A DNA stretch of 64,000 nt. Source: a virus. Both the position numbers and the translations under genes were made by a program. Location of the stretch: the IMG/VR virus record IMGVR_UViG_3300035698_032311, positions 1 through 64,000 of that record; one strand, written 5' to 3'. Shown here in pieces: positions 1,330 to 51,673 of the stretch (position 1 is the first letter of the stretch; each line of letters starts with the position of its first letter). The notes beneath the pieces are model-generated. The model was not told the DNA's origin. It saw nothing but the letters and a program-made list of their open reading frames with translations, and made no database searches.

Positions 1330-1617
1330 ATGAAAAAAATAAAAATAAAGCGAGTTTGCCATGATTGTGGCAAAGAACTCGTAATCAAAAACAAAAGAAT
1401 AATTGGGGGTAAACTTTTAGTGTATAAAGAAGGAGATAAAGAAATAAACATTTTAAAATGTAATGAATGTTTCAAGAAAAATCCTTCTTTGAATAATTTT
1501 AGAAAATGCGAAGTTTATTCAAGGATTGTCGGTTATCTCAGGCCCGTTAAACAATGGAACATAGGAAAAAAACAAGAGTTTAAGGATCGAAAAAATTTCA
1601 ATATAAAAAATGAATAA
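1330..1617 (+). CDS. stand-alone NrdD C-terminal-like protein (zinc ribbon plus glycyl-radical motif)
   Basis: 95 aa; CHDCGK…(24 aa)…CNEC zinc ribbon, then SRIVGYLRPVKQWNIGKKQEFKDRKNF. This matches the class III RNR glycyl-radical tail pattern R-x-C/V-G-Y-L…(F/W)N-x-G-K-x-x-E…R. Confidence 0.5.
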   Translation: MKKIKIKRVCHDCGKELVIKNKRIIGGKLLVYKEGDKEINILKCNECFKKNPSLNNFRKCEVYSRIVGYLRPVKQWNIGKKQEFKDRKNFNIKNE

Positions 1618-1737: not shown

Positions 1738-1808
1738 TCCGAAGTAATGTAATGGTCGCATAGGAGACTTTGATCCTCCTAATCTAGGTTCGAATCCTAG
1801 CTTCGGAG
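1738..1808 (+). tRNA. tRNA-Gln (anticodon TTG)
   Basis: Manual cloverleaf: acceptor tccgaag/cttcgga, T-arm ctagg-ttcgaat-cctag, anticodon loop ctTTGat. Confidence 0.55.
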
Positions 1809-1813
1809 CATAT

Positions 1814-1888
1814 TCCAACGTGGACAAGCAGTATGTCGTCTGTCTCATAAGCAGAAAATCGTAGGTGCAATTCCTACCGTTGGAACCA
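1814..1888 (+). tRNA. tRNA-Met/Ile2-type (anticodon CAT), CCA encoded
   Basis: Acceptor tccaacg/cgttgga plus A plus CCA; anticodon arm tctgt-ctCATaa-gcaga; T-arm gtagg-tgcaatt-cctac. Confidence 0.6.
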
Positions 1889-1889
1889 T

Positions 1890-1975
1890 GGAAGATTGTC
1901 GGGGAAATGGCTATCCCACCTCTCTTGAAAAGAGGAGCTGTAAAAGGCGTGTAGGTTCGAGTCCTACATCTTCCG
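1890..1975 (+). tRNA. tRNA-Ser (anticodon TGA)
   Basis: 86 nt with long variable arm; anticodon arm cctct-ctTGAaa-agagg; T-arm gtagg-ttcgagt-cctac; acceptor ggaagat/atcttcc. Confidence 0.65.
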
Positions 1976-2003
1976 CAGCAAGTAAGTGTGTTGTCTGTTG
2001 TAC

Positions 2004-2089
2004 GGAAGAATATCCAAAATGGACAAGGAAGCGGTTTGCTAAACCGTAAAGGGTAAAAACCTTTGTAGGTTCGAGTCCTACTTCTTCCG
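2004..2089 (+). tRNA. tRNA-Ser (anticodon GCT)
   Basis: 86 nt; anticodon arm gcggt-ttGCTaa-accgt; long variable stem aaaggg/cctttg; T-arm gtagg-ttcgagt-cctac. Confidence 0.6.
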
Positions 2090-2212
2090 CCTATGTTTTT
2101 AATACCAAGTGACATACCTCTATTATTAGAGGCATTAAAGGAAAAAGGATTTATAACTAAAAAAGAATTGATTAGCTATTTAATTAGTTTCTTAATTCGT
2201 TTAATATAAATA

Positions 2213-2286
2213 AGCCAATGTAGCTCAATTTGGCAGAGCAGTTGCTTTGTAAGCATCAGGTTGGGGGTTCGATGCCCTTCATTGGC
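2213..2286 (+). tRNA. tRNA-Thr (anticodon TGT)
   Basis: Acceptor gccaatg/cattggc; D-arm gctc..gagc; anticodon loop ttTGTaa; T-loop ttcgatg. Confidence 0.5.
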
Positions 2287-2292
2287 TCATAT

Positions 2293-2365
2293 ACTACCCT
2301 GTCCTAATTGGCAAAGGAGAAAGTCTTAGACACTTTTTATCTGGGTTCGAGTCCCAGGGGTAGTA
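2293..2365 (+). tRNA. tRNA with Leu-type anticodon TAG but short (4-nt) variable loop
   Basis: Acceptor actaccc/gggtagt, D tcct..agga, anticodon arm aaagt-ctTAGac-acttt, T-arm ctggg-ttcgagt-cccag, discriminator A. Confidence 0.45.
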
Positions 2366-2371
2366 CTATAT

Positions 2372-2444
2372 GTGCCAGTAGCCCAATGGCAGAGGCAACA
2401 GATTTAAGTCCTGTTCAGTGTAGGTTCGAATCCTACTTGGCACA
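2372..2444 (+). tRNA. tRNA with Leu-type anticodon TAA but short variable loop
   Basis: Acceptor gtgccag/ttggcac; anticodon arm acaga-ttTAAgt-cctgt (one A-C closing mismatch); T-arm gtagg-ttcgaat-cctac. Confidence 0.45.
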
Positions 2445-2450
2445 CAAAAT

Positions 2451-2525
2451 GCCACTATGATGCAATTTGGTAGACATATTAGTTTCAAAAACTAAAAATT
2501 GAAGGTTCGAATCCTTCTAGTGGCA
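2451..2525 (+). tRNA. tRNA with Leu-type anticodon CAA but short variable loop
   Basis: Acceptor gccacta/tagtggc; anticodon arm ttagt-ttCAAaa-actaa; T-arm gaagg-ttcgaat-ccttc. Confidence 0.45.
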
Positions 2526-2531
2526 TATAAG

Positions 2532-2602
2532 GGCTTCATCTTCTAGTGGCAGGAAACAAGATTCTCAATCTTGTAACAAGAGTTCAATTCTCTTTGAAGC
2601 CA
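2532..2602 (+). tRNA. tRNA-Glu (anticodon CTC)
   Basis: Acceptor ggcttca/tgaagcc; anticodon arm caaga-ttCTCaa-tcttg; T-arm aagag-ttcaatt-ctctt. Confidence 0.55.
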
Positions 2603-2607
2603 CAAAT

Positions 2608-2678
2608 GACCTTATCAGCTAATGGCAGGCTAGAAGACTTTCATTCTTCCAATGTGGGTTCAACTCCCGCTAGGGTCG
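2608..2678 (+). tRNA. tRNA-Glu (anticodon TTC)
   Basis: Acceptor gacctta/tagggtc; anticodon arm gaaga-ctTTCat-tcttc; T-arm gtggg-ttcaact-cccgc. Confidence 0.55.
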
Positions 2679-2689
2679 CAAATAAAGAT

Positions 2690-2763
2690 GGGAATGTAGC
2701 TTAATAAGGCAGAGCAATTCTCTCTTAAAGAAAAGGTTAAAGGTTCGATTCCTTTCATTCCCA
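2690..2763 (+). tRNA. tRNA-Lys (anticodon CTT)
   Basis: Acceptor gggaatg/cattccc; D gctt..gagc; anticodon loop ctCTTaa; T-arm aaagg-ttcgatt-ccttt. Confidence 0.5.
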
Positions 2764-2773
2764 CTATTGAAGA

Positions 2774-2845
2774 TGGCTTATAGTTCAACGGTAGAACACT
2801 TCTCTGATAAAGAAGAAGTTATAGGTTCAATTCCTATTAAGCCAA
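2774..2845 (+). tRNA. tRNA-Ile (anticodon GAT)
   Basis: Acceptor tggctta/taagcca; D gttc..gaac; anticodon arm cttct-ctGATaa-agaag; T-arm atagg-ttcaatt-cctat. Confidence 0.6.
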
Positions 2846-2959
2846 CAATATTTATTATTAGAATATATAAATAAATGAATTGTAAGAGGTTGCCGATTAA
2901 TAAGGCAAAATAAATTTTCAAAAGAAGATTTAATTGATAACTCTATATAATTCATAAAA

Positions 2960-3031
2960 ACCCCATTAACTCAACAGACAGAGTATTAGCCTTCGAAGCT
3001 AAAAATCTGGGTGCGAATCCTAGATGGGGTA
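2960..3031 (+). tRNA. tRNA-Arg (anticodon TCG)
   Basis: Acceptor accccat/atggggt; D actc..gagt; anticodon arm ttagc-ctTCGaa-gctaa; T-arm ctggg-tgcgaat-cctag. Confidence 0.55.
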
Positions 3032-3032
3032 C

Positions 3033-3104
3033 AGGGATATAGCTTAAAAGTAAAGCTCTATTCTTATAAAATAGAAGATATGGGTGCAAGTCCTATTATC
3101 CCTA
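3033..3104 (+). tRNA. tRNA-Ile (anticodon TAT, reads ATA)
   Basis: Acceptor agggata/tatccct; anticodon arm ctatt-ctTATaa-aatag; T-arm atggg-tgcaagt-cctat. Confidence 0.55.
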
Positions 3105-3110
3105 CTATAC

Positions 3111-3182
3111 TGCAGGGTCATCTAATCGGTAGGATATGAGATTCTGACTCTCATAATTTAGGTTCGAATCCTAATCCTGCAA
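3111..3182 (+). tRNA. tRNA-Gln (anticodon CTG)
   Basis: Acceptor tgcaggg/tcctgca; D atct..ggat; anticodon arm tgaga-ttCTGac-tctca; T-arm ttagg-ttcgaat-cctaa. Confidence 0.5.
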
Positions 3183-3187
3183 CATAA

Positions 3188-3261
3188 GGGAATATAACTC
3201 AATTTGGTAGAGTACCTGTCTTTTAAACAGGAGATTCTAGGTTCGATTCCTAGTATTCCCA
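3188..3261 (+). tRNA. tRNA-Lys (anticodon TTT)
   Basis: Acceptor gggaata/tattccc; anticodon arm cctgt-ctTTTaa-acagg; T-arm ctagg-ttcgatt-cctag. Confidence 0.65.
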
Positions 3262-3264
3262 CAC

Positions 3265-3405
3265 GGAGGCAGAAGACATTGGTCTGAAGCACATTGCAAA
3301 ATCTTATCTCATTCTAGTAGCGGGTAAGTGCGTGAAGTGTATCGATGAAAAAGAGACTTGCTAGAAGTTCTTGAGTAGTTGTTGGTTCAACTCCAACTGC
3401 TTCCA
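3265..3405 (+). tRNA. aberrant 141-nt tRNA-like locus (insertion-disrupted or degenerate tRNA)
   Basis: Perfect T-arm gttgg-ttcaact-ccaac followed by tgcttcc plus A. A 7-nt 5' partner ggaggca (6 WC plus 1 GU) lies 130 nt upstream. No canonical D or anticodon arm could be folded in between. Confidence 0.3.
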
Positions 3406-3454
3406 CAAAAACATGATTATAAAACTAACAATAATAAAGTATTAAAATTCAACA

Positions 3455-3525
3455 AGACCTAGTTACCGAGTAGTCAGGTGGGAGTCTGCAAAACTCTCTA
3501 CATAGGTGCAAATCCTATCTAGGTC
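3455..3525 (+). tRNA. tRNA-Cys (anticodon GCA)
   Basis: Acceptor gacctag/ctaggtc; anticodon arm ggagt-ctGCAaa-actct; T-arm atagg-tgcaaat-cctat. Confidence 0.55.
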
Positions 3526-3526
3526 T

Positions 3527-3817
3527 CATTTAGATATGATTGTGGCAGAATAGACGATAAACCAATATACCAAACGCAATAACTATTAGGCGAAGAAGGT
3601 GGCAAGTCATCTCCAGAGTTCTTGATACGCTTAATGGGAACTGAAGTTTGGTTGATAAGCAAAAAGAACCAGAAGCGATGTTGGTCTAAAAAGTATTGCA
3701 TTATGTTCTACCTGTAGCTGGTAATAAACCAGAAGTAAAAACTGTGAGGGAAGCGGTAGAGATACGCCTCACACTGTAGGGTGGAATATCGAGAATCCCT
3801 ACCAATCATATCTAAAT
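3527..3817. other. 291-bp element bounded by a perfect 15-bp terminal inverted repeat (MITE-like insertion or structured RNA)
   Basis: atttagatatgattg at 3527-3541 is the exact reverse complement of caatcatatctaaat at 3803-3817. The element sits precisely between tRNA-Cys and tRNA-Arg. The interior has an internal hairpin gtaggg…ccctac and no convincing ORF. Confidence 0.45.
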
Positions 3818-3820
3818 AAT

Positions 3821-3893
3821 ACCCCTGTCATCCAATTGGATAGGATACTGGTCTTCTAAACCTGAAATAGTGGTTCGAGTCCACTTGGGGGTA
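3821..3893 (+). tRNA. tRNA-Arg (anticodon TCT)
   Basis: Acceptor acccctg/tgggggt (two GU); D atcc..ggat; anticodon loop ctTCTaa; T-arm agtgg-ttcgagt-ccact. Confidence 0.5.
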
Positions 3894-3899
3894 CATTTT

Positions 3900-3971
3900 G
3901 CCAACGTAGCTCAATGGTAGAGCATTCGCTTGAAAAGCGAGGGGTAATAGGTCCAATTCCTATCGGTGGCA
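3900..3971 (+). tRNA. tRNA-Phe (anticodon GAA)
   Basis: Acceptor gccaacg/cggtggc; D gctc..gagc; anticodon arm ttcgc-ttGAAaa-gcgag; T-arm atagg-tccaatt-cctat. Confidence 0.55.
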
Positions 3972-4009
3972 CTGACAAAAATATTTAATTAGTATAAATA
4001 AACGATAAT

Positions 4010-4097
4010 GGCAAGGTGTGCCGAATGGTGAAGGCACTAGTCTGTAAAACTAGCACCCTAGTGGTAAACATTACAGGTTCGATTCCTGTCCTTGTCA
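4010..4097 (+). tRNA. tRNA-Tyr (anticodon GTA), class II
   Basis: 88 nt; acceptor ggcaagg/ccttgtc; D tgcc..ggca; anticodon arm ctagt-ctGTAaa-actag; long variable arm; T-arm acagg-ttcgatt-cctgt. Confidence 0.6.
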
Positions 4098-4102
4098 CAT
4101 AT

Positions 4103-4174
4103 TTCCGTGTAGTTTAACGGCAAAACAGCTGTGTTACATACAGAAGAGTGTAGGTTCAACTCCTATCACGGAAA
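4103..4174 (+). tRNA. tRNA-Val (anticodon TAC)
   Basis: Acceptor ttccgtg/cacggaa; D gttt..aaac; anticodon loop gtTACat; T-arm gtagg-ttcaact-cctat. Confidence 0.5.
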
Positions 4175-4193
4175 CAGTTGAATTAATTTTTAT

Positions 4194-4264
4194 TCCTCCG
4201 TAGTATAATGGTAATACACTTCTCTGTTAAAGAAGAATTAGCGGTTCGAATCCACTCGGAGGAG
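4194..4264 (+). tRNA. tRNA-Asn (anticodon GTT)
   Basis: Acceptor tcctccg/cggagga; D gtat..atac; anticodon arm cttct-ctGTTaa-agaag; T-loop ttcgaat. Confidence 0.6.
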
Positions 4265-4391
4265 CTAAATAGTATATCTTTCATTTTAATAGTAGTACCT
4301 ATGTACAAAAACGTCTAAATATGATATAATATACTTATAAAGGTCAAAAATATCAATAAAGGTCAATTTAATATAAAAATAAAATAAGACA

Positions 4392-6031: not shown

Positions 6032-6340
6032 ATGGAAGAAGAAAATAAAGTAGAAGAAGAAACTGAAGAATCTTTAGAAAATAAACCTGTTGATGAAGAA
6101 AAAGAAGAAGAATTAGAAGATGATGTTAAAGAAGGCACTGAAGACAAAGAAGAGGACGAAGAAGAGGATGATGAAGAAGAAGATGATGAAGAAGAAGACG
6201 AAAAAGAGGATGATGAAGAAGATGATGAAGAAGATGAAGAAGAGGATGAAGAAGAAGATGAAGAAGAAAGTGATGAAAAAGATGAAGAAGAAAGTGATGA
6301 AAAAGATGAAGAAGGGGATAAAAAAGAAGATGAAGAATAA
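6032..6340 (+). CDS. extremely acidic E/D-rich low-complexity protein
   Basis: 102 aa, >70% Glu/Asp (GAA/GAT repeats). Overlapping ORFs in other frames are repeat artefacts. Confidence 0.5.
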   Translation: MEEENKVEEETEESLENKPVDEEKEEELEDDVKEGTEDKEEDEEEDDEEEDDEEEDEKEDDEEDDEEDEEEDEEEDEEESDEKDEEESDEKDEEGDKKEDEE

Positions 6341-7662: not shown

Positions 7663-7905
7663 ATGAAAAAAGGTTTTACAGTAATAGAACTTCTAGTAAC
7701 AATAGCAATTATCGGTACTTTGTTAGGAATTTTTATGGTTTCTTTACAAAATGCTAGAGAAAAAATAACAAATCCTGCTTATAAAGAATGTCAAGAAGAA
7801 GAAAACGAGTGTCGAAATGATTGCGCCAATTTTGCTGTAGATTTAAGTGATTGTCTTTTAAGATGCAATATTTTAAAAGAAAGTTGTTTAAACGTAATTG
7901 ATTAA
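7663..7905 (+). CDS. type IV pilin-like protein (prepilin-type N-terminal cleavage/methylation domain)
   Basis: MKKGFTVIELLVTIAIIGTLLGIFMV matches the G|FT(L/V)IEL prepilin peptidase site plus hydrophobic helix. Short Cys-rich C-terminus. Confidence 0.65.
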   Translation: MKKGFTVIELLVTIAIIGTLLGIFMVSLQNAREKITNPAYKECQEEENECRNDCANFAVDLSDCLLRCNILKESCLNVID

Positions 7906-7912
7906 TTATAGA

Positions 7913-8141
7913 GGCATAAGTAGTTCCTATTATATTTGCGATTTCAGGATCAAAAGTCTTGAAATTGCAAGCAACCTTATTACTACTCGCCTCTTAATAA
8001 AAAATAAAAGTGGCATAGGCAGTTCCTATTACAATTACATTTTGGATTTAAATACTGCCCGCCACCAACAGGAAAGTAGTTCAATGGTAGAACACAGGCT
8101 TAATTTACTTTTCGCTTTTAGCAAAAAAAGTTCCTATTATA
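7913..8141. repeat. three direct copies of an agttcctatta-containing repeat at about 100-bp spacing
   Basis: ggcataagtagttcctattata at 7913-7934 and ggcataggcagttcctattaca at 8012-8033 match 19/22; the agttcctattata core recurs at 8129-8141. Confidence 0.6.
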
Positions 8142-8183
8142 AACTGGGTGCCTGTGATGTAGGTTCGATTCCTACCTTTCCTA
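8070..8183 (+). tRNA. tRNA gene interrupted by a ~43-nt insertion in the anticodon loop (possible anticodon TGG, Pro, if spliced)
   Basis: Perfect acceptor aggaaag/ctttcct (7 WC), D-arm gttc-aatggta-gaac, T-arm gtagg-ttcgatt-cctac. The anticodon stem halves caggc (8095-8099) and gcctg (8150-8154) are separated by 50 nt instead of 7. The insert carries the third copy of the agttcctattata repeat. Confidence 0.45.
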
Positions 8184-8225
8184 CAAATATAAAAAGGTCA
8201 TATATTAATTTAACAAAGTAAATAC

Positions 8226-10190
8226 ATGAACACTTCAATTCTTAGGCTTTTTAAAGCTTTACCCATAAAAACTAAAAGAAAAAAAACCAACAAAGATTTG
8301 TTGATGAAAACCATCAAGAAAGGTTTTATATTTTCTCCAGAAGTTATTTATACTTATCCAAACTATATCAAGCTAATAGAAATGGTAGAAAAACTCTTTG
8401 GAATAACTGCTGAAAAATTAAATAGTTCTTTTCACAAATCTTGGGTTAAGGTAAAAAATGCTGATATAGAACAATTGGTAGTGGAACAAATAGCACACTA
8501 TTTGACAACATATGGTAAAGAGCAACCAAAAGAATATTTGATAGAAAAGGAAGTACAATGGGGTGTTAATCATTTAGCTGAAAAGATACTTGAATTGAAA
8601 GATTTTGAATCAAATAAAATTCAAGATGAAAATTATATTTATATTCCCAAAGAAAAGTTAGATATTCCTGAACTTGATATTGATGGAATAAAATTAGTAG
8701 TTATTAAAGGATATACTAAAAAAGAATTGAAAGAGAAGTTATTGAAACTGCTTGGTTTAGGAATAGCGTTAGGTGAAGATACAATAAAAGATGTGTTAAA
8801 TGTAGCTACTTTTGTTGAATTAAATGAAAAAGATTTAGAAAATATTAAAAATAAAGAAGTAAGAGTCACGCTTTATGATAATTTGAATTTGTTGCCGGAA
8901 AGCCCTATTGAATTTTTGAGATTTGTTATTTATAAAGCAACAGATAAAACTCTTCTGATTAAAAGTTCTGTATTAATAAAAGAGATAAAAGAACATAAAA
9001 ATACCGGTATTACTAAACTTTTTACTGAATATAAACAAAAGTATGGATTAGAAAAACTAGCAGAAATATTTTATCGTTTTAAACCCCTTTTTCTAGCGTT
9101 CAGAATAAACAAAACATCAAAAAAGACAATAAATAAAATAAGAAGATTAGCTGTAAAGTACCACAAACCACTACCAGAAGATTATCTTAACAACATTACA
9201 TCCAAGTTGAAGAAAGGAGAAAAAGTAGGCAGTAATAAACTAAAAGAAGAACTGGACAAAGTTAACGTGTTTCGCAAGATTAGATTGGCTTATGCTTTGA
9301 AATTTAGAACAAAAGATGTTAAATCAATTTTGTACAAGATAAGGAATGGAAAAGGATATGCTACATCTTTCGATTTTATAAAGAAAGCAGGTGCCAAGAG
9401 AATATTAGACATTGTATTAGATTCAATTGTTAAAGATATTAGCAAAAATGTAAAGAACAAAAAAATCTATATTCCTGAACATATAACATATAGTTTGCCT
9501 GCAACTGAAAAACAATTTACAGGAAATTTTCCCTCAGGAACATTTGTATCAATTCCCAAAGATATGATTGTTGGTATTAGTTGGGCAAACGTAAACGGTG
9601 ATATGATTGACTTAGACTTATCTATGATTTCACCAACAACTGGTAAAATAGGTTGGGATGTGGGTTATAGAACAAAAAGTAAAAATATATTGTTCTCGGG
9701 AGATATAACAAATGCTCCTAATGGTGCTACAGAGTTGTTTTACATACAAAGACAAACTAAAAAAGCACTTATACTTCTTGTTAATTATTATAATTTTAAT
9801 GAAGACATAGAAGTTCCATTTAAAATAATTGTAGCTAAAGAAAAAACAGATGATTTTAAAGAAAATTATATGGTAAATCCTAACAATGTTATGTCTGTTG
9901 CTGAATCAAAAATCAATCAAAGAGAAAAAATATTAGGTTTATTGGTTACAACTTCTGATGAATGCAGATTTTATTTTACTGAAACATATATAGGTAAATC
10001 AATAACTTCTACTGGCTCAGATTTTGTAGAACACAGTAGAAAATATCTCTTTGATTTCTATGAAAATACTATTAGATTAGAAGATGTTTTGATAAAAGCG
10101 GGTGCTAAAATAGTTGATAAAGATAAAGCTGATATTGATTTATCACCAGAAAACTTAGAAAAAGATACTATATTAAATTTGCTAGTTTAA
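8226..10190 (+). CDS. large protein with C-terminal TerD-like (tellurite-resistance/Ca-binding) domain
   Basis: 654 aa; residues ~440-580 read GISWANVNGDMIDLDLSMIS…GKIGWDVGY…ILFSGDITNAPNGATELFYI…ILLVNYYN. This follows the TerD pattern GWDV…DLDLSa…SGDNLTG…E.I.I…A.vTIhd. Confidence 0.45.
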   Translation: MNTSILRLFKALPIKTKRKKTNKDLLMKTIKKGFIFSPEVIYTYPNYIKLIEMVEKLFGITAEKLNSSFHKSWVKVKNADIEQLVVEQIAHYLTTYGKEQPKEYLIEKEVQWGVNHLAEKILELKDFESNKIQDENYIYIPKEKLDIPELDIDGIKLVVIKGYTKKELKEKLLKLLGLGIALGEDTIKDVLNVATFVELNEKDLENIKNKEVRVTLYDNLNLLPESPIEFLRFVIYKATDKTLLIKSSVLIKEIKEHKNTGITKLFTEYKQKYGLEKLAEIFYRFKPLFLAFRINKTSKKTINKIRRLAVKYHKPLPEDYLNNITSKLKKGEKVGSNKLKEELDKVNVFRKIRLAYALKFRTKDVKSILYKIRNGKGYATSFDFIKKAGAKRILDIVLDSIVKDISKNVKNKKIYIPEHITYSLPATEKQFTGNFPSGTFVSIPKDMIVGISWANVNGDMIDLDLSMISPTTGKIGWDVGYRTKSKNILFSGDITNAPNGATELFYIQRQTKKALILLVNYYNFNEDIEVPFKIIVAKEKTDDFKENYMVNPNNVMSVAESKINQREKILGLLVTTSDECRFYFTETYIGKSITSTGSDFVEHSRKYLFDFYENTIRLEDVLIKAGAKIVDKDKADIDLSPENLEKDTILNLLV

Positions 10191-10212
10191 AGATTTAAAA
10201 GGATCAAGTAAG

Positions 10213-11109
10213 ATGAACAGTTGGTTTAAACAATATTATAATAAATGCATTCAAATTTTAGATGAAATGAGATCTAAAATTGAAAAAAAAGTTTCAAGAT
10301 TAAAAGAAGATATCGCATTTTATCTCGAAAGATCGACTAAAGCAACATTACGTTTGAGAGAACAACAAAAAATGGAAATGTTGTTTGAACAATTAAAAGT
10401 AGAAAAAGCTGCATTAGAAAAACTTAAAAAATACAGAAAAGAACTTGATACTAATGTTTTCATAAAAGAACAGTTTCTAAAATTGAAATCGCATCATAAA
10501 ATTGAAAAAGTATTATTCAGATTCGATAATAAAATTATTGATATTTACACAGAAGAATTAAAAGTTTCAGGATCAAGAATTGGAAAATTCAGAATATCTA
10601 TTGAATTAAATAATAGTACACCATTTAAAATTAAAAATTTAACATATAAAGTTAATGATAAGTTTGATCATTGGTTTGTTAAAAATGAAAAACCATGCTT
10701 TGGAAGCTGGCAACCTGTTGTTGATAAATATTTACAAACAGGACATGTCTTTTTATGTATTGACACATTAATTCATTTTTTATTATCAATAAAAGGCGAA
10801 CACGGTTTTTTAAAATCTAAAGATTGGCTTAAAAGTTTTACTGAACAAAAACATTATAAAAGTAACACAAATTCAGGTTATCTAACAGTTGATATGGAAA
10901 CTACTGTAAATGCGGGCGATTCATACTATCTTAATCATATTATGAGTAGAACAAGAGTTGGTCCTAGCATTTATGCTTCTGTGCCCGAAATAGCAACTAG
11001 TCCAAGAAATGTATACATGGCAGTATCTCCAGGATTTATAAATGAGTCACCTTCAACAACTAATATGCCTATAACAACATGGTTATATGACAATAATGCA
11101 GCTAGTTAA
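10213..11109 (+). CDS. hypothetical protein, coiled-coil N-terminus; weak E2/UBC-like patch
   Basis: 298 aa; HWFVKNEKPCFGSWQPVV…GHVFLCIDTLIHFLLSI loosely resembles the UBC HPN…C…W.P…LLSI order. Confidence 0.3.
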   Translation: MNSWFKQYYNKCIQILDEMRSKIEKKVSRLKEDIAFYLERSTKATLRLREQQKMEMLFEQLKVEKAALEKLKKYRKELDTNVFIKEQFLKLKSHHKIEKVLFRFDNKIIDIYTEELKVSGSRIGKFRISIELNNSTPFKIKNLTYKVNDKFDHWFVKNEKPCFGSWQPVVDKYLQTGHVFLCIDTLIHFLLSIKGEHGFLKSKDWLKSFTEQKHYKSNTNSGYLTVDMETTVNAGDSYYLNHIMSRTRVGPSIYASVPEIATSPRNVYMAVSPGFINESPSTTNMPITTWLYDNNAAS

Positions 11110-25322: not shown

Positions 25323-27677
25323 TTATCTTGCACCCAATTTTCTAAGCTCATTATTTCGAGCTAATACCTTTTCCAAAACTCTGCCCATTTCTTGTAAATC
25401 TTCAGATTTTCGGATAATTGGATTATTTATATTTATAGTTATTGGTGCTAATTCACCAAGTTGATTTGAAGGAATCACCCGTTCGCCACCATGTAAAATA
25501 GCAGGCACTCTTTCATTAGGAAAGCCGGGTACAATGCCACCGAGTTGATAAGAACGAAAGCCCTTCATAAAATTTTGAAATGCACCATACATCGCATCAG
25601 ATAAAACTTGTATTCCTTCAATTCCTTGCATTCCAAATTTCTGTATGTCTTGTGAACTTAATGGTTTTTCTATTCCCGGAACATAACTAGGACCCGAAAC
25701 AGGACCATACGGTGCACTCATTGCTTCTCCCATAAATTGTCCAATACTTTCCCAAATACCTTTTTGTTTTTTTACTTTTTCTGTATTTTTATCAGATTCT
25801 TCACCAAGTTTTATAAGTTTATCTACCATTTCATCAAGAGTAGTATTTGTACTTTCCAAAGTATCATTAACATTTGCTTGTTGATTGTCTATTCCTGCTA
25901 TTTGTTCTTCAGTTAAACCTAGTTTAGCTACTTGTTCATCTAGTTGAGCAATTCTTTCTTCATGAGTTCTTTTCATTTTTTCAAATTCATCTAAAAACGC
26001 GAAATTTCTCCACTGTTGATATTCTTCTTTATGTTTTTTTCTCAACTCGTATTCAACATTTAACTCGTCAATAATACTATTCTTTTTTTCTTTTGTTGAT
26101 TCTTTGTGATCTGCAACGTCTTCATCGTAATCTCTTTGTTTTCTTTTTTTATCTTTAGCATATTCTTTATTTTCATCTTCAATTGCTTCCCTTAAATCTC
26201 TTAATTTTTCTTGATCTGCTCGTATACCCAGAGATTCTTCACATTCTAAATCTCTAGTCAAATCATCTATTCTATCTTTATGAGCTTCTTCCATGTCTGC
26301 CATTGATTCTGCATAATCTCTAGTTCTTCTATCTAAATATTTCTTTTCATCGGTTTCTAATTTTAATAAGTCAGCTTTAAGTTTATCAATAGTTTGAGAG
26401 TGTTTTCTAGCCAGTTCCATCAAACTTTCTTCATAATCTCTATTTTCTTTAGCTAACTGACTAGTAAACTTAGCATAGCTTTCAAGAGATGCAGCACTTG
26501 CTTTTGCAGCAACATCAGGCAATGTTTTAAATACATCACTTATTAAAGCTATGTTTCTTTTCAAACTATTAGTCCACTTATCCCACTTTCCTGTAATTTT
26601 TAAAATCATAATTGCAAGACCTCCTAATGCTACAACTAATGCAAGAATCACAGCAGTTGCTTTAACACCCGCAATTATCATAGGCAAAAGTGCACTCCAT
26701 TTAAGAGTAGTAAACCCAAGTATTAACATCGGTAACAATGCACCAGCCATTGCTATAGCTGCTGTAAAAGTAGTTAACATAACTAGTCCCACTTGGAGAG
26801 CAGCTGCGACTTCTTTATTTTTTGAAATAAAGTCAGTAAACTTTGTTACTAAATTAGTTATATTTTCTGCTAATGTACCTATTACTGGCAATAATGCTTC
26901 ACCCATCCTTATTTTAAAAATTTCTATGTTAGCAGACAATCTATCTAATGTGCCACTGAAAGTATTCATAGCGAAATTTGCACCACCCGTGAAGCGTTTA
27001 GATTCACTAACTAACTTATTATAAACTGCCATATGACGGTCCAGCTCATTAAATTGATTAGTTGTTTTTCCTATAACAGCTTCATAGTCCTTATAAGTTT
27101 GAGTTAATTTTTGGTTGATACCAACTGCATCAATGTTTCTTTCATTTAAGACTCTAAAACCAAAAGACATTTTTTCCATAGCACTTCCTGTTGTATACAT
27201 TTCTTCATGTAAAAAAACAGCAGTATCTAAAGTACCTTTCATTAAAGTATCCACTTGATCTAAATTTAAACCACTTGCTAATAAATTCTGAACAGTCATT
27301 GCAGCTTCTGAAATTGACATTAACCCTGTTTGAGCATATTTTGTTGCAAGACCAGTAGCATCTTCCATGCTCTGTCCAGTAGTTTTAGCCATTACATTCA
27401 ATCCTAACATTCCTCTTTCATATTCTTTATATGAATCTACAAAACTTTTAGTGGCTAACATCATTGCACCAGATGTTGCACCTACTACTAAACTTAAATA
27501 TCTAAACTGGTTACCCAGTCCTCCAAGTCCATTCACTACTTCTTCATGACCCTCTGTCATTTTTTTGCTAGATTTCTGGGAAGCTGTTCCTAATTCTTCA
27601 GTAGCTTTTTTAGCTTTATCAGTTCCTGCAGAGTTGTAGTCACTACTTACATGTATTGTTATATCGTTACTTGCCAT
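25323..27677 (-). CDS. tape measure protein
   Basis: 784 aa, long coiled-coil segments plus central hydrophobic TM stretch; preceded by chaperone with G-T frameshift. Confidence 0.7.
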   Translation of the reverse strand: MASNDITIHVSSDYNSAGTDKAKKATEELGTASQKSSKKMTEGHEEVVNGLGGLGNQFRYLSLVVGATSGAMMLATKSFVDSYKEYERGMLGLNVMAKTTGQSMEDATGLATKYAQTGLMSISEAAMTVQNLLASGLNLDQVDTLMKGTLDTAVFLHEEMYTTGSAMEKMSFGFRVLNERNIDAVGINQKLTQTYKDYEAVIGKTTNQFNELDRHMAVYNKLVSESKRFTGGANFAMNTFSGTLDRLSANIEIFKIRMGEALLPVIGTLAENITNLVTKFTDFISKNKEVAAALQVGLVMLTTFTAAIAMAGALLPMLILGFTTLKWSALLPMIIAGVKATAVILALVVALGGLAIMILKITGKWDKWTNSLKRNIALISDVFKTLPDVAAKASAASLESYAKFTSQLAKENRDYEESLMELARKHSQTIDKLKADLLKLETDEKKYLDRRTRDYAESMADMEEAHKDRIDDLTRDLECEESLGIRADQEKLRDLREAIEDENKEYAKDKKRKQRDYDEDVADHKESTKEKKNSIIDELNVEYELRKKHKEEYQQWRNFAFLDEFEKMKRTHEERIAQLDEQVAKLGLTEEQIAGIDNQQANVNDTLESTNTTLDEMVDKLIKLGEESDKNTEKVKKQKGIWESIGQFMGEAMSAPYGPVSGPSYVPGIEKPLSSQDIQKFGMQGIEGIQVLSDAMYGAFQNFMKGFRSYQLGGIVPGFPNERVPAILHGGERVIPSNQLGELAPITININNPIIRKSEDLQEMGRVLEKVLARNNELRKLGAR

Positions 27678-43485: not shown

Positions 43486-44189
43486 TGTTTTTGAAAAACT
43501 AAAAGAGGATTTATATCTGAAAGTCTAATCATTTTTAATAATTTTAACTTCGCTAACCGTGCATGCAAATGAAGAAAAGCAAGATAAAATGTTTCTTTTT
43601 GATGTGTTTCTTGAAAAATTTCAAAATTTGGCAAAACTAAAAATCTCCATTTTATTACAGCTTGGCTTCTTTTAAAACTTGAAGTAGTCAATCTTATAAT
43701 TATTTTTTCTTGTGCTTTAAAACTTTTAATAATTACTTTTGTAAGACCATGAAGAATAACATCATCAGTGTCCCAATAATCAACAATAAACAATCCATCT
43801 TTTCGTAAATGTCGTGAAACTATTTTAAAAAATTGTGGAATATCACGTTTTTTTAGATATCCAAGTACATCAAAAAGACAAACACATGCGTCAAATTTTT
43901 GGGAACTCTTAAAGTTTAAAATATCATCACATTTAAATTTTAAATTGCTATTTTTTATTTTCTTTTGTGCAATTTTAATCATGTCAGGAGATTTATCAAT
44001 TCCAAACACAGTATATCCTTGTTGAGCTAAAATTGACGAATGTCGCCCTGTTCCACAACCAATATCAAGAACTTTTTTTATATTATGTTCTTTAAAAATT
44101 GTATCTAAAAAATCAACTTCAGCTTTATAGTCTTTTCTTTGGTATGTAATATCATAGATATTAGCATACTTTTCTTTAAAAACACTCAT
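43482..44189 (-). CDS. class I SAM-dependent methyltransferase
   Basis: VLDIGCGTGRHS motif I. Confidence 0.7.
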   Translation of the reverse strand: MSVFKEKYANIYDITYQRKDYKAEVDFLDTIFKEHNIKKVLDIGCGTGRHSSILAQQGYTVFGIDKSPDMIKIAQKKIKNSNLKFKCDDILNFKSSQKFDACVCLFDVLGYLKKRDIPQFFKIVSRHLRKDGLFIVDYWDTDDVILHGLTKVIIKSFKAQEKIIIRLTTSSFKRSQAVIKWRFLVLPNFEIFQETHQKETFYLAFLHLHARLAKLKLLKMIRLSDINPLLVFQKQ

Positions 44190-45262
44190 AATGTTTCTTT
44201 TATTACTTTAATAATTTCATCTTGTTCCTTTTCTGTTAAATCAGGAAATGTTGGCAAATATATTCCTTCATTCATTAATCGTTCAGAAACTGGAAAATTA
44301 CCGTCTTGTTTCAAATATGGCTGTAAATGCATCGGAATAAACCCCCTGCGAGTTTCAATTCCATTTTCTTTTAATGCTTTTTCAATCTCATTCCTTTTTG
44401 GTGTTTTAATAAAGTAATACCAGCTAACGTTTTTAGCAAACTTTTTTTCTACTGGAATTTCAACTAATCCTTCTAAATATTTATCGTAGTATTTAGCAAT
44501 TTTATTTCTTTTTTCATGCAATTCATCCCATCTTTCAAGTTGTCCAAGTCCAATTGCTGCATTCAACGAAGACAATCTTAAATTCCACCCAATTTTTTCG
44601 TGCCAGAAATGACCTACTTTGGGAAAATAATAAGCTCGAATCCCCCTTAATTCTGATGCTAAAGCATCATCATTCGTTGTAATTGCTCCACCTTCACCAC
44701 ATGTGATAATTTTGTTAGCATAAAACGAAAAACAATTACAAATACCAAAAGAACCGACTGTTTTCCCACCATACTCAGCACCATGAGCTTCAGCTGCATC
44801 TTCAACTACTTTTATATTTTTTCCTTTAATTGCTTCAAATATTTTGCTCATATTTACTGGCTGACCGTAAATATGTACAGGTATTATCACTTTAGTTCTT
44901 TCAGTGATTTTTTCTTTTATTAAATCAGGGTTAATATTACAAGTATCCCATTCTGCATCTACAAAAATAGGTTTAGCCCCACATTCAATAACTGCATTTG
45001 CAGTTGCGACCATAGTAAAATCAGGAACAATAACTTCATTATCACTTCTAATATTCAATGCCCATAAAGCTAAAAATAAAGCAGAACTTCCACTATTTAC
45101 TGCAATACAGTGTTTTACACCAATTCTCTCAGCGAATTTTTCTTCAAAAAGTTTCGTAAACCCTGCTATTGAAGAAATTTTACATTCATCAAGAGCTTTA
45201 TTGACCCATTTTTTCTCAACTTCTGTAATACTTGGACGAGATACGGGTATTTTATATTTCAT
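44186..45262 (-). CDS. DegT/DnrJ/EryC1/StrS-family sugar aminotransferase (PLP)
   Basis: …AVNSGSSALFLAL…GDEVIVPDFTMVATANAVIECGAKPIFVD… full-length match to the family. Confidence 0.8.
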   Translation of the reverse strand: MKYKIPVSRPSITEVEKKWVNKALDECKISSIAGFTKLFEEKFAERIGVKHCIAVNSGSSALFLALWALNIRSDNEVIVPDFTMVATANAVIECGAKPIFVDAEWDTCNINPDLIKEKITERTKVIIPVHIYGQPVNMSKIFEAIKGKNIKVVEDAAEAHGAEYGGKTVGSFGICNCFSFYANKIITCGEGGAITTNDDALASELRGIRAYYFPKVGHFWHEKIGWNLRLSSLNAAIGLGQLERWDELHEKRNKIAKYYDKYLEGLVEIPVEKKFAKNVSWYYFIKTPKRNEIEKALKENGIETRRGFIPMHLQPYLKQDGNFPVSERLMNEGIYLPTFPDLTEKEQDEIIKVIKETL

Positions 45263-45288
45263 ATATTTAAATATTTATATTAATAAGT

Positions 45289-46062
45289 TCATTCGACGTA
45301 AAATTCTAATTTTAGAATATTTTTAAGCATCGGATATCGCCACTGAGAAACTGCTCTTGGACCTATTCCAAGAAGAAAGTCCCAAAATGCTCCCATGTCT
45401 AATAGAAAAGATTTCTTTAATTTATTATGAAGATTACTTATAATAATATTAGAAGTAATTCCTGCAGTAAAACAATAAACTGCTGGTTTTCCATATCTTA
45501 AAATTTCATTTTCAACTCTATCATTTTCAAGATATGCCCCAAGTGTTGGAATTTCTATTAGTTTAAACTCTTTAAATAGACCTTTCTCTTTTAAAACTTT
45601 TAAATAACGACCACCTATTAATACTAATTCTTTTTTTCTTAAAGTTTCTATAAACTCTCTTGTTAAGGGCGGATATCTTATATCTCCTAAAGAAGTCCAT
45701 CTTAAAAGTTCATAAAATAATCTAGCATCATGTCGTTTCTGAATTCCAATCTTTTCTATCAATTTTTTTGCCTGTTTAATTAAGTTAGGGTAATCCTTAC
45801 CCCCCACTCCTTCTATTATTGTAGATAAATAAAGACCCGGAGATTTACAGTTATATAATGTTTCTATTAATTCTTTTCTACAATTTGGATAATAAATCTC
45901 TCTGTTAGAAATTGATGTTTTATCAAATATGAAACTAAATTCTCCGTCTCCATAACTTAACCAAGAAAAGTACTCATTATTTTTTAACTTATTGACAAAA
46001 AAATAAAATTTTGTTTTAAAGTCTTCAAATTTTTCATCATTTAGTTCTTTAGGCATATCCAA
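45289..46062 (-). CDS. GT-D (DUF1792)-like glycosyltransferase candidate
   Basis: N-terminal SYGDGEFSFIF (GDGE = DxE metal motif); paralog of next gene. Confidence 0.35.
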   Translation of the reverse strand: MDMPKELNDEKFEDFKTKFYFFVNKLKNNEYFSWLSYGDGEFSFIFDKTSISNREIYYPNCRKELIETLYNCKSPGLYLSTIIEGVGGKDYPNLIKQAKKLIEKIGIQKRHDARLFYELLRWTSLGDIRYPPLTREFIETLRKKELVLIGGRYLKVLKEKGLFKEFKLIEIPTLGAYLENDRVENEILRYGKPAVYCFTAGITSNIIISNLHNKLKKSFLLDMGAFWDFLLGIGPRAVSQWRYPMLKNILKLEFYVE

Positions 46063-46783
46063 TGTTTCGTTTCATCATTTTACGATCTAATTTAGGTAGC
46101 GTTTTAATTCTCCAATTCCTCTTAACAAAAGGGTCCCATGTATAACCAAAATCAATAAGAGAAGCATTTAATTTCGAATGAAGTCGCCCTATTAAAATAT
46201 TACTAGCGATACCAGCTGAAAAACAATATACATTACTTTTTGGTGCATTTAATATCTGTTGCTCAATCTCATCAATATGAAGAGTCGCACCTCTTTTTGG
46301 TACTTGAATAAATGCTTTATAATGAATCATATCATAAATCTTTTTTAGATGAATCGCACCAATCATTACAATTTTTCTTTTTCTTAACAATTCTATTAGT
46401 GGAAACAGTTCACCGTATTCAAGAGCATAATAATACATCATACAATGAAATCTTCGTTTATTGTAACTAATATCATCTAAATATTTTAAAGATTCCTTAG
46501 CGATTTTTATAAATTTACCGTATTCTTGCATCGTTGCTAAAAAACAATTGTCTTGTTGGACAGAAACATCTAATGCTTGCAATAAGCCGAGACGACTTTC
46601 TTCATTATAAATTTCTCTTTGTGTTGAACGCTCTCTTTTTCGAAGAATAAAATTCCATTCACCGTCTCCAAAATTCAACAAAGAGAAAGGTTTATTTTCA
46701 TCAAGTTTCTTTAAAAGTAACAGATAATCTTCTTTTATTTTATCTATGGGAATATTTTGACCAATGTTTAATATATCAGACAT
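46049..46783 (-). CDS. GT-D (DUF1792)-like glycosyltransferase candidate, paralog
   Basis: NFGDGEWNFIL; about 30% identity to the 45289 gene across its length. Confidence 0.35.
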   Translation of the reverse strand: MSDILNIGQNIPIDKIKEDYLLLLKKLDENKPFSLLNFGDGEWNFILRKRERSTQREIYNEESRLGLLQALDVSVQQDNCFLATMQEYGKFIKIAKESLKYLDDISYNKRRFHCMMYYYALEYGELFPLIELLRKRKIVMIGAIHLKKIYDMIHYKAFIQVPKRGATLHIDEIEQQILNAPKSNVYCFSAGIASNILIGRLHSKLNASLIDFGYTWDPFVKRNWRIKTLPKLDRKMMKRNIGYA

Positions 46784-46787
46784 TTTT

Positions 46788-47144
46788 TTATATTTTTTTT
46801 ACAAGAAAAATAGCATTTTGATTTTTACCATAAAGATCATCAACTTTAAAGGCTCTTTCAAAACCAATATCTAAATAAAAATGAATTGCCTCGATATTTG
46901 TAGCAATCGTATGAAGGTACACACTTTTATAACTCGGATATTTTTTTAACATTTCATAAAATAGTTTTGTTCCATAACCTTTTCTTTGAAATTTTACTGT
47001 TACATAAATATTATGAACTTCTAAGACTTTCCCTCCCGGAAAAGTATGCCAAGATATGAGTCCAATTTCTTCCTCTTCTTCTGTTTTAAAACTGATATTA
47101 TTGCCGTTCTGTTTGATTATTATTTCTTGATCAGGAACACTCAT
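46788..47144 (-). CDS. GNAT N-acetyltransferase
   Basis: QRKGYGTKLFYEML … FYLDIGFE acetyl-CoA binding motifs. Confidence 0.6.
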   Translation of the reverse strand: MSVPDQEIIIKQNGNNISFKTEEEEEIGLISWHTFPGGKVLEVHNIYVTVKFQRKGYGTKLFYEMLKKYPSYKSVYLHTIATNIEAIHFYLDIGFERAFKVDDLYGKNQNAIFLVKKI

Positions 47145-47148
47145 ATTT

Positions 47149-48081
47149 TTATTTTCTGTTTAAAAACCATTGATATGTTTCTTTAAGTCCTTCCTCGAAT
47201 GTATATTCTGGACGACTTTTGATAACTTTATAAACTTTAGTATTATCAGATAACAAATACTGTACATCGTCTGGTCTCATTCGTTCTTCCCTTACTTCAA
47301 TTTGTAGTACCTTACCCATGATTTTAGCAATAAGTACTGCTATTTCTTTAACACTATAACTTTTACCTAAACCAAGATTATAAACTTCTCCAACTTTACC
47401 TTTCTCAATTAGTTCCGAAACAATTCTAACTTGATCTTTTACATAAAGAAAGTCTCTGCAAGCACGAATATTTCCTAACTTGATAGTTTCTCGTATCGAA
47501 AGCTGTTTCATAATTACTGGAATAACATAGGGTTGAGTCCACTTTGGACCGAAACTATTAAACTGTCTTAGAATAATAACAGGAACACCGTGTTCGTTGA
47601 AAAAATTATAACATATTCTATCAGCTGCTAATTTTGTTGTTGCGTATAAAGAACGAGGAAAAACTGGAAAATCTTCAGAAATAGTTTGATGTCGATTTGA
47701 TGCACCACCATATACTTCAGATGAAGAATATACAAGCACCCGATATATATCAGCTTCTTGGCATGCTTTAAGCACATTTAAAGTACCTCTTATATTAATA
47801 TCAACAAACTCTTCAGGATTCTCATACGAATCAGGTATAAAAGGACATGCTGCTAAATGAAAAACATAATCGGTTTTAAAATCTCTTAAAATCTTAGACA
47901 GCCTGACAACAGAATATCGAATGTCTATTTTTCGAAAATTAACATTAGAATCTAAATATTCTCTTTTTCCCGATAAAAGATTGTCTAAAACTAAAACATT
48001 ATTTTCTTGGACTAAATAATTTGAAAGATGGTTGCCAAGAAAACCTGCTCCCCCAATTATAACAATATTTTTATTCTTCAT
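47149..48081 (-). CDS. NAD-dependent sugar epimerase/dehydratase (extended SDR)
   Basis: IIGGAGFLGNHL (GxxGxxG) and YATTKLAADRI (YxxxK). Confidence 0.8.
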   Translation of the reverse strand: MKNKNIVIIGGAGFLGNHLSNYLVQENNVLVLDNLLSGKREYLDSNVNFRKIDIRYSVVRLSKILRDFKTDYVFHLAACPFIPDSYENPEEFVDINIRGTLNVLKACQEADIYRVLVYSSSEVYGGASNRHQTISEDFPVFPRSLYATTKLAADRICYNFFNEHGVPVIILRQFNSFGPKWTQPYVIPVIMKQLSIRETIKLGNIRACRDFLYVKDQVRIVSELIEKGKVGEVYNLGLGKSYSVKEIAVLIAKIMGKVLQIEVREERMRPDDVQYLLSDNTKVYKVIKSRPEYTFEEGLKETYQWFLNRK

Positions 48082-48754: not shown

Positions 48755-48784
48755 ATTAAAAGTGTTTCATATGATTTAAAATTG

Positions 48785-49177
48785 TTAGTTTTTTAATCTT
48801 TTTATGAAAAAAATAGCATTTTGATTTTTACCATAAAAATCTTTAACTTCAAAGACTTTTTCAAATCCAAGATGTAAATAAAAAGAAAGTGCCTTAGTAT
48901 TCGTTGATCGTGAATGACAATAAACATTTACATATTCTGGATATAATTTTATCATTTCTTGTACTAAATATGTTCCATAACCCTTTCTTTGAAACTCAGT
49001 TTCAGTATGAATATTATGAATTTCTAAAACCTTTCCCCCAGGAGACGCATGCCATTTAATAAAACCAATTTCTTGACCTCCTTTAGTCTGAAAACTTAAG
49101 TTATTCTTATCTCTTTTAATTATTATTCCTTGTTTTAAACCCGTTCTTCTAACAATAGCAATGTTTCTGTTTTTCAT
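48785..49177 (-). CDS. GNAT N-acetyltransferase (paralog)
   Basis: QRKGYGTYLVQEMI … FYLHLGFE. Confidence 0.6.
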   Translation of the reverse strand: MKNRNIAIVRRTGLKQGIIIKRDKNNLSFQTKGGQEIGFIKWHASPGGKVLEIHNIHTETEFQRKGYGTYLVQEMIKLYPEYVNVYCHSRSTNTKALSFYLHLGFEKVFEVKDFYGKNQNAIFFIKRLKN

Positions 49178-49179
49178 AT

Positions 49180-50316: not shown

Positions 50317-50317
50317 A

Positions 50318-51672: not shown

Positions 51673-51673
51673 A

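Follow-up and report, generated by a model that had tools for sequence, protein, structure and literature searches.

A small phage gene encodes a candidate autonomous glycyl-radical domain for class III ribonucleotide reductase

We analyzed a 64,000-nucleotide (nt) stretch of viral DNA, positions 1 to 64,000 of the IMG/VR record IMGVR_UViG_3300035698_032311 (hereafter, the window), and a 95-amino-acid (aa) protein that is encoded close to its start. The open reading frame (ORF) at 1330..1617 on the + strand is present as quoted in an earlier sequence-only reading, which had likened its product to the zinc-ribbon and glycyl-radical tail of the anaerobic (class III) ribonucleotide reductase (RNR) NrdD. 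Class III RNR is an oxygen-sensitive enzyme that provides DNA building blocks, and strict anaerobes depend on it. Sequence comparison and the gene context of relatives indicate that the window gene probably encodes an autonomous glycyl-radical domain belonging to class III RNR, most likely acquired from a host resembling the candidate phyla radiation (CPR, Patescibacteria), which would serve as a separate radical part. On balance, although with a little less assurance, we also favor a wider proposal: class III RNR would have a widespread autonomous glycyl-radical family of zinc-ribbon and mini types, the first spare part known beyond pyruvate formate-lyase (PFL), wired into CPR nrdD-nrdG operons or PerR-type units, acting as the sole radical subunit in several lineages and phages, and serving phages as an auxiliary gene that sustains the supply of deoxyribonucleoside triphosphates (dNTPs) after oxygen exposure.

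In the window protein (MKKIKIKRVCHDCGKELVIKNKRIIGGKLLVYKEGDKEINILKCNECFKKNPSLNNFRKCEVYSRIVGYLRPVKQWNIGKKQEFKDRKNFNIKNE), a zinc ribbon with four Cys is joined by 13 linker residues to a glycyl-radical loop of the NrdD kind, which is complete (Table 1). Pfam, NCBIfam, and PHROG all place it at the NrdD C-terminus, which bears out the similarity first proposed. The Pfam NRDD match (PF13597; E=3.1e-12, 46.4 bits compared to a gathering cut-off of 26.2) pairs residues 9-90 of the protein with the very end of the profile (positions 510-562 of 562), and the matches to NCBIfam NrdD (TIGR02487) and PHROG 487 (NrdD-like) are confined to positions 538-580 of 581 and 665-712 of 718, respectively. NCBIfam scores did not exceed 43 bits, compared to NrdD-model cut-offs of 326-764, and neither Pfam nor NCBIfam found the NrdD catalytic body (the ten-stranded alpha/beta barrel with its finger-loop Cys) in the 95-aa protein. 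The two-knuckle C-terminal metal site of NrdD is present, with C10, C13, C44, and C47 invariant in the family and zinc binding predicted, as is the R-x-x-G-Y radical motif with the W/F-N-x-G-K...E...R segment that follows it (RIVGYLRPVKQWNIGKKQEFKDRK). CHDCGK and CNEC are 28 residues apart rather than the 24 counted earlier. Based on alignments, the inter-knuckle hairpin measures about 30 aa in the window protein, about 20 aa in the subfamily found in Moranbacteria operons, and about 12-14 aa in NrdD. Ribbon and Gly loop are separated by 13 linker residues, compared to 4 in NrdD (e.g., VIEQ-K-C). Linker positions L54, N56, and C60 are invariant or nearly so in the family alignments, and 15 loop residues are invariant (E61, V62, Y63, S64, R65, V67, G68, Y69, R71, P72, Q75, W76, G79, K80, and E83).

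When a profile of 33 family members was compared to the PDB, the sole family matched was Thermotoga maritima NrdD, with ...EVYSRIVGYLRPV.QWN.GK... aligned on ...DEYMRIVGYLVPVSAFNKER... (chain residues 611-645). This alignment sets RIVGYL on RIVGYL and G68 on G621, which we take to be the radical site of the T. maritima enzyme; the glycine is therefore positionally homologous to the NrdD radical glycine, and the earlier interpretation of the GY motif holds. The Val before this Gly had been regarded as a substitution; it is instead the normal residue of the clade, given that T. maritima and CPR NrdDs read R-[IV]-V-G-Y. The loop segment of the window protein and the C-terminal tail of L134, a full-length CPR NrdD, share 85% identity. 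A single-sequence phmmer search of the window protein against PDB sequences returned chance matches only, and T. maritima NrdD was recovered by the family profile alone. The PFL-type Gly_radical family (PF01228) did not match the window protein at E<=1. An identical protein (P0001) is on record only on a 2.3-kb Joint Genome Institute (JGI) metagenome contig. Around the window gene, a promoter scan performed no better than shuffled controls, and a terminator scan found no + strand terminator 3' of it.

The protein belongs to a large stand-alone family. A word-index search returned 351 relatives, and all 120 that were listed are 86-123 aa long and carry PF13597 only; the named sources among these 120 are Nealsonbacteria, Paceibacterota, Parcubacteria, and Staskawiczbacteria, with one labelled Methanogenium. 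An exhaustive search of 1.84 billion cluster representatives with a hidden Markov model (HMM) gave 4134 matches at E<=1e-3, including 540 at E<=1e-10, and the best 150 of the 4134 are all 42-159 aa long. Phages commonly carry such a gene: in IMG/VR, 456 stretches are related to the small protein, and ANMV-1, a virus of ANME-1 archaea, encodes a 144-aa member. Across the family alignment, 23 positions do not vary: M1, the four Cys, and E61-V-Y-S-R-x-V-G-Y-x-R-P-x-x-Q-W-x-x-G-K-x-x-E83. The small proteins differ from NrdD C-termini in that the first knuckle is a canonical CHDC, the hairpin is extended, and the linker (C-F-x-K-N-P-x-L-x-N-F-[RQ]-K) exceeds that of NrdD by 9 residues. With this distinct ribbon and hairpin and the conserved linker, the family therefore represents a diverged paralogue of the NrdD C-terminal domain and not random fragments. 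Many members, the window protein not among them, end in a CC, CxC, or GCGC tail (e.g., L123:9971-10246, L119:10140-10424, and L115:8347-8658; also P0079, P0099, P0112, and P0117). These tails resemble the C-terminal Cys pairs that re-reduce class I/II RNR active sites and, by analogy, could shuttle reducing equivalents.

Cellular relatives show two genomic linkages, of which one is to the nrd operon. Among 37 loci with the zinc-ribbon type in a GTDB scan of one genome per species, the small gene lies directly 3' of nrdD in 16 (Moranbacteria, Parcubacteria, and Paceibacterota). Thirteen of these 16 operons have nrdR upstream of nrdD, and 13 have nrdG downstream of the small gene, an adjacency that would fit installation of the radical by the parent enzyme's activase; operons without a visible nrdR or nrdG sit on short or cut contigs. 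The identity of the operon proteins is clear from their domains, with NrdD matching NRDD over profile positions 1-562 of 562 plus an ATP-cone in Pfam, NrdR a zinc ribbon plus ATP-cone, and NrdG Radical_SAM/Fer4_12 and the NrdG2 model TIGR02495 (203 bits; cut-off 131). The small gene forms a cistron of its own. The stop codon of nrdD is TAA or TAG and, in 15 of the 16 operons, is followed by a spacer of 18-137 nt containing additional stops; the exception is L111, in which the nrdD and small-gene reading frames overlap. In the majority of operons, the small gene starts at an independent ATG located about five codons ahead of the CHDC knuckle.

Two configurations exist among the 16 operons, corresponding to the spare part and the half of a split nrdD that had both been proposed from the window sequence. 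In configuration A (9 genomes), a complete NrdD retains a tail of its own (...CPKC-x4-[KP]-x-EVYSR[IV]VGY[IL]RPVxQWNxGK...), so that a separate small gene accompanies a complete parent enzyme with a nearly matching loop; the small-protein loop is 79-91% identical (mean 83%) to that of its own NrdD, compared to 73% to NrdDs of other genomes. In configuration B (7 genomes), NrdD ends 10-26 residues past the CPKC-type knuckle in a degenerate tail (e.g., ...CPKCVIEQKTEVFLKVGEEE...*, KTEVFLKVGEEELREKQEKIIKK*, and KAEGFLVAGEDEDEAKK*); in L110, such an NrdD occupies 7769-9961 and its small gene 9989-10285. These NrdDs match TIGR02487 to position 549 of 581, PRK08270 to 661 of 684, and T. maritima NrdD to residue 612, with the finger-loop MCCR intact. 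Because they stop before the loop, the small protein is the sole source of the radical glycine in those operons. Readthrough or an alternative genetic code behind the truncated NrdDs was also considered and is ruled out by the TAA/TAG stops, the spacer stops, and the small gene's own ATG. In a rough neighbor-joining tree of NrdD bodies, configuration B is polyphyletic with at least 3 losses, and L169, a close relative of three configuration-A genomes, is without the small gene. Polyphyletic loss is the pattern expected of interchangeable cis and trans loops, of which one or the other is lost. This pattern provides the strongest available evidence, from sequence comparison, that the small protein may deliver a glycyl radical to NrdD in trans. 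Configuration B NrdD is in effect a genetically pre-cleaved enzyme; oxygen reportedly cuts activated E. coli NrdD at the radical glycine, a result attributed to King and Reichard in 1995, and leaves body and ribbon.

The second linkage, to oxidative-stress genes, is found among the closest relatives. The window protein falls in the long-hairpin subfamily, whose closest cellular members are 52-69% identical to it and do not adjoin nrdD. In eight loci (L250, L251, L252, L254, L092, L093, L094, and L096), a Fur-family gene precedes the small gene with an overlap of about 26-32 nt. Rubrerythrin, desulfoferrodoxin (superoxide reductase), or iron superoxide dismutase (Fe-SOD) genes lie 3' of the small gene in several Fur-linked loci and in L090 and L001. 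PerR-linked contigs reach considerable sizes (L250, JGI Ga0485107_000012, 447 kb; L251, 224 kb; L252, Ga0265297_10000177, 212 kb; L254, 18.7 kb; L001, Ga0265297_10000012, 804 kb), the unit is also present on a 626-kb chromosome (L091, OZ246412.1), and no nrd gene occurs within 10 kb in the PerR-linked loci. PerR models give the Fur-family proteins their highest scores (82-93 bits, compared to 41-66 for Fur); these remain below equivalog cut-offs, and we call the regulator PerR-like by this ranking and its context only. Placement with peroxide and superoxide defence genes is what would be expected if the part stands in for a radical domain destroyed by oxygen. In two CPR loci, a conserved Cys-containing ORF of about 52 aa (MKRITKKSKNKNMQCTLCQANF...YCPACRR) separates the small gene from the Fe-SOD gene (L250:10337-10495 and L092:5177-5473).

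In viruses, none of the 39 zinc-ribbon-type loci has NrdD or NrdG within 10 kb on either side, and the neighbors are ordinary phage genes. The best 80 of 258 viral NrdD loci include no contig with a stand-alone small gene; three contigs are common to the viral small-gene and NrdD scans, and in each the first-scan match is a full-length NrdD. A second type comprises ORFs of 40-87 aa with little beyond the Gly loop and no zinc ribbon (e.g., MTKKARTECEVYSRVVGYLRPIDQWNLGKRQEYKDRKLF...). This mini type was found at 27 loci, nearly all viral, that lack NrdD or NrdG within 10 kb. Among the same best 80 viral NrdD loci, 8 encode an NrdD that ends right after the zinc ribbon, and 7 of these 8 have a separate Gly-loop ORF of 40-79 aa nearby. 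The order is nrdD'-mini-nrdG in L181 and L230, and in L072 the mini ORF is directly upstream of the truncated NrdD. Delivery of the Gly loop in trans therefore appears to have arisen repeatedly. The NrdD genes of the clade, both viral and CPR, are also heavily invaded by inteins with LAGLIDADG and Hint domains (e.g., L060, L061, L073, and L082 at about 1030 aa; P0277, P0365, and P0383), and one viral stop-to-stop ORF of 2553 aa (L069:2441-10099) has its NrdD segments broken up at least 4 times.

These data suggest the following mechanism. The small protein would fold around zinc through its own four-Cys ribbon, and the host NrdG activase, a radical SAM enzyme, would take hydrogen from G68 as it does from the NrdD C-terminal loop. 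The radical loop, carried on the 13-residue linker, would then dock in trans into the barrel of an NrdD whose own loop was lost to oxygen cleavage at the radical glycine or was never present, with the ribbon of the small protein bound beside the resident NrdD ribbon. Once docked, the loop would regenerate the finger-loop thiyl radical, and dNTP synthesis could go on during infection in an oxygen-exposed host. The proposed rescue of an oxygen-cleaved parent has indirect support from the 7 genomes whose NrdD is truncated near the cleavage point and from the context of PerR-like, rubrerythrin, superoxide reductase, and SOD genes.

The main alternative is a split, two-gene class III RNR, in which a phage or host NrdD body lacks the Gly loop and the window protein is its obligate subunit. 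A catalytic gene lacking the small-gene segment does occur in the same genome in relatives (7 CPR operons cut after the zinc ribbon, where the small gene is the only Gly loop, and 7-8 phage loci); the 8 of the best 80 viral loci cut at the same point, 7 of them with a nearby Gly-loop ORF, and the mini ORF of L072 fit this arrangement, and split phage RNR genes are already known (PMC3653736; PMC3045599). However, we regard it as unlikely for the window gene, given that the 64-kb window contains no NrdD body, that the viral zinc-ribbon-type loci (0 of 39) have no NrdD within 10 kb, that the cellular members of the long-hairpin subfamily are in PerR/oxidative-stress units and do not adjoin nrdD, and that the CPR NrdDs with a Gly loop closest to the window's (L127-L137 and L160) are complete. 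The spare part is favored over the split half for the window protein because of the missing NrdD body and because the closest relatives are in units with PerR-like, rubrerythrin, superoxide reductase, or SOD genes; a full-length nrdD elsewhere in the genome, which the sequence-only reading would have counted against a separate radical part, would instead fit a spare part.

It is highly unlikely that the partner is something other than NrdD, such as another glycyl-radical enzyme or a redox or oxygen sensor of a PerR regulon. The lack of nrd genes near the PerR-linked loci and the CC or CxC tails of many members would suit such a partner, but the Gly loop is 79-91% identical to NrdD tails, the gene lies between nrdD and nrdG in one subfamily, and similarity to PFL-type radical domains is absent (no PF01228 match at E<=1). 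Even less probable is a decoy for host takeover that titrates NrdG or blocks the NrdD barrel and thereby shuts down or re-routes host dNTP synthesis. A decoy would be expected to be small, phage-borne, modeled on part of a host enzyme, and without a partner gene in its vicinity, as is the case here; the family is nevertheless conserved in cellular nrdD-nrdG operons, every radical-loop residue including G68 is conserved, and phages generally need more dNTPs, not fewer. An inhibitory role is moreover incompatible with the 7 genomes in which the small protein is the only Gly loop. We give almost no weight to a non-functional nrdD remnant, either a C-terminal deletion fragment or an exon of an interrupted gene. 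Phage nrdD is often broken by introns, inteins, and homing endonucleases (PMC3653736), and related loci hold intein-bearing NrdDs of 1030-2553 aa; on the other hand, the window gene has its own ATG and no NrdD-like sequence upstream in any frame, and both its linker and its ribbon (CHDC...KCxxC, with a hairpin of 30 aa) are unlike those of full-length NrdD and are common to hundreds of stand-alone proteins with 23 invariant positions.

Several results weigh against the preferred reading, a separate radical part for NrdD. The window encodes neither NrdD nor NrdG: HMMs made with about 50 sequences of the NrdD body and 13 of NrdG found no match in six frames of the 64 kb, and Pfam found neither NrdD nor NrdG in the large window ORFs, which extends the earlier statement that no NrdD body is adjacent to the whole window. 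Stand-alone copies on phage contigs and on contigs of Desulfobacterales and other non-CPR metagenome-assembled genomes (MAGs) have no conserved neighbor (terminase three times, HNH/LAGLIDADG, Clp, and others), and some MAG contigs may be mis-binned phage. Truncated and oxygen-cleaved NrdDs retain a zinc ribbon of their own, which leaves the docking place of a second ribbon unexplained. The AlphaFold2 (AF2) model, built from a 40-sequence alignment, has a mean predicted local distance difference test (pLDDT) score of 66 with the Gly loop at about 50-70, and Foldseek found no match to it in the PDB at E<=0.001; the ribbon is moderately confident (strands 18-44 at pLDDT 73-80). The Gly loop is plausibly ordered only once docked, and the structure model is uninformative. 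Finally, activation by NrdG, docking on NrdD, and rescue of activity by the small protein are steps that we infer from sequence and gene context.

Known systems offer two partial parallels. GrcA/YfiD of E. coli and Y06I of phage T4 are autonomous glycyl-radical spare parts for PFL, and spare parts are not known outside the formate lyases according to a 2026 review (PMC13450708), in agreement with the sequence-only reading, which knew of them for PFL only. PFL, the parent enzyme, is irreversibly cleaved by oxygen at its radical glycine (PMC13450708; PMC8683613). As in these proteins, the radical loop of the small NrdD-like family is nearly identical to that of the parent enzyme, and both sides share phage-encoded members (Y06I being the precedent) and a genomic link to oxygen stress. 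They differ in that the parent is class III RNR and not PFL, that the family is outside PF01228, and that the small protein contains a zinc ribbon, which GrcA lacks. In addition, the parent NrdD has no loop of its own in some lineages, making the small protein obligatory there. For GrcA and PFL, we know of no report in which the parent loop is lost and the small protein obligatory. The resemblance lies in function and architecture, by analogy, and not in family membership. With the NrdD C-terminus itself, the small protein shares the two-knuckle ribbon followed by the R-[IV]-V-G-Y-L...W-N-x-G-K...E-F-x-x-R loop with its glycine in register; unlike NrdD, it has no catalytic barrel, its inter-knuckle hairpin is about 15-18 residues longer, and its linker is 9 longer, and its first knuckle is CHDC where CPR NrdDs have C-P-x-H-G. 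The second parallel is Aeromonas phage Aeh1, in which NrdA-a and NrdA-b, split by the homing endonuclease mobE, show that an RNR catalytic subunit works as two polypeptides (PMC3045599; PMC3653736); other split phage nrd genes, several interrupted nrdD genes among them, likewise stem from mobile-element insertion. The operons with truncated NrdD and a small gene and the phage nrdD'-mini-nrdG loci are comparable, whereas the Aeh1 enzyme is class Ia, its split was caused by a mobile endonuclease, and its halves are adjacent; here, the small piece is a duplicated and diverged radical domain that also occurs beside complete NrdD and alone in phages. What appears new, judging from sequence, is that class III RNR, too, would have an autonomous glycyl-radical cofactor, one that includes a zinc ribbon and that some lineages would be unable to do without. 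A stand-alone NrdD radical domain is not described in the 2026 glycyl-radical review, RNR-wide phylogenies, 2025 NrdD cryo-EM work, or a phage RNR survey, nor did full-text searches aimed at it bring one to light, with subscription journals poorly covered so that a prior mention is possible, and we found no paper on class III RNR in Patescibacteria.

Table 1 Features of the window gene and of mini-type glycyl-loop loci in related viral contigs
Feature	Location	Strand	Basis or remark
Whole small gene	1330..1617	+	ATG start, TAA stop, 95 aa; ORF list and sequence
First zinc knuckle, C10-H-D-C13	1357..1368	+	C10, D12, C13 invariant (33- and 40-sequence family alignments)
Long beta-hairpin insert between knuckles, residues 14-43	1369..1458	+	Alignment to NrdD C-termini; AF2 model
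Second zinc knuckle, C44-N-E-C47	1459..1470	+	K43, C44, C47 invariant; aligns with NrdD CPKC knuckle
Family-specific linker FKKNPSLNNFRKC, residues 48-60	1471..1509	+	Alignment to NrdD C-termini
Gly-radical loop and C-terminal segment EVYSRIVGYLRPVKQWNIGKKQEFKDRKNF, residues 61-90	1510..1599	+	Predicted radical glycine G68, nt 1531-1533
Mini ORFs near truncated NrdD	L181:5125-5307, L230:4980-5216, L211:2959-3129, L072:3211-3372		
Mini-type loci without nearby NrdD/NrdG	L047, L050, L052, L064, L070, L077, and others		Viral contigs

The window is an AT-rich region (about 31% G+C) of a tailed phage with a large tRNA complement, and the - strand encodes phage structural genes that include a tape-measure protein (25323-27677) and a prohead protease domain (61541-63913). 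An array of 22 tRNA genes (1738-4265, + strand) starts 120 nt 3' of the small gene and includes tRNA-Ile(UAU), three tRNA-Leu, and two each for Ser, Glu, Gln, Lys, Arg, and Ile; it is unusually large for a phage region, which suggests a large genome and a codon usage unlike that of the host. Directly upstream of the small gene is a DUF5662 protein (756-1241, + strand; E=2e-40), preceded by a PHROG 1485 protein (427-759, + strand) and a Cys-rich 90-aa ORF with several CxxC pairs (142-414). Downstream of the array, a 102-aa ORF (6032-6340, + strand) is nearly all Glu/Asp (EEDDEEEDD...), with Lys-rich and Phe/Leu-rich ORFs overlapping it in other frames; it could be a highly acidic phage protein, such as an internal protein or one that mimics DNA, or an artefact of composition. 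At about 14 kb, + strand genes and positive GC skew give way to - strand genes and negative skew, which is the boundary of divergent modules. A - strand cluster at 44186-56456 resembles sugar or nucleotide-sugar modification genes and could have a role in virion or DNA glycosylation; it encodes a 760-aa protein that carries two glycosyltransferase-1 domains, an aminotransferase (PHROG 3139, E=3e-61), and proteins of the kinase and cytidylyltransferase/methyltransferase kinds. The 790-aa ORF at 61541-63913 has a prohead serine protease S78 domain at residues 18-162 and about 600 remaining residues without a family match, and could represent a fusion of the protease with a scaffold or capsid protein.

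The family described here is a concrete and testable spare-part candidate for class III RNR, and its recognition could give new names to hundreds of proteins now labelled 'anaerobic ribonucleoside-triphosphate reductase' or 'hypothetical'. The operons that combine a truncated NrdD with the small protein are a natural evolutionary experiment and, as far as gene content can tell, indicate that the radical domain can act in trans. A radical domain working in trans would bear on how NrdG gains access to the glycine, on the flipping of the domain in and out of the barrel, and on engineering. With this gene, the auxiliary metabolic genes of phages also gain a very small member, and the family suggests a route by which minimal-genome CPR bacteria may tolerate transient oxygen.

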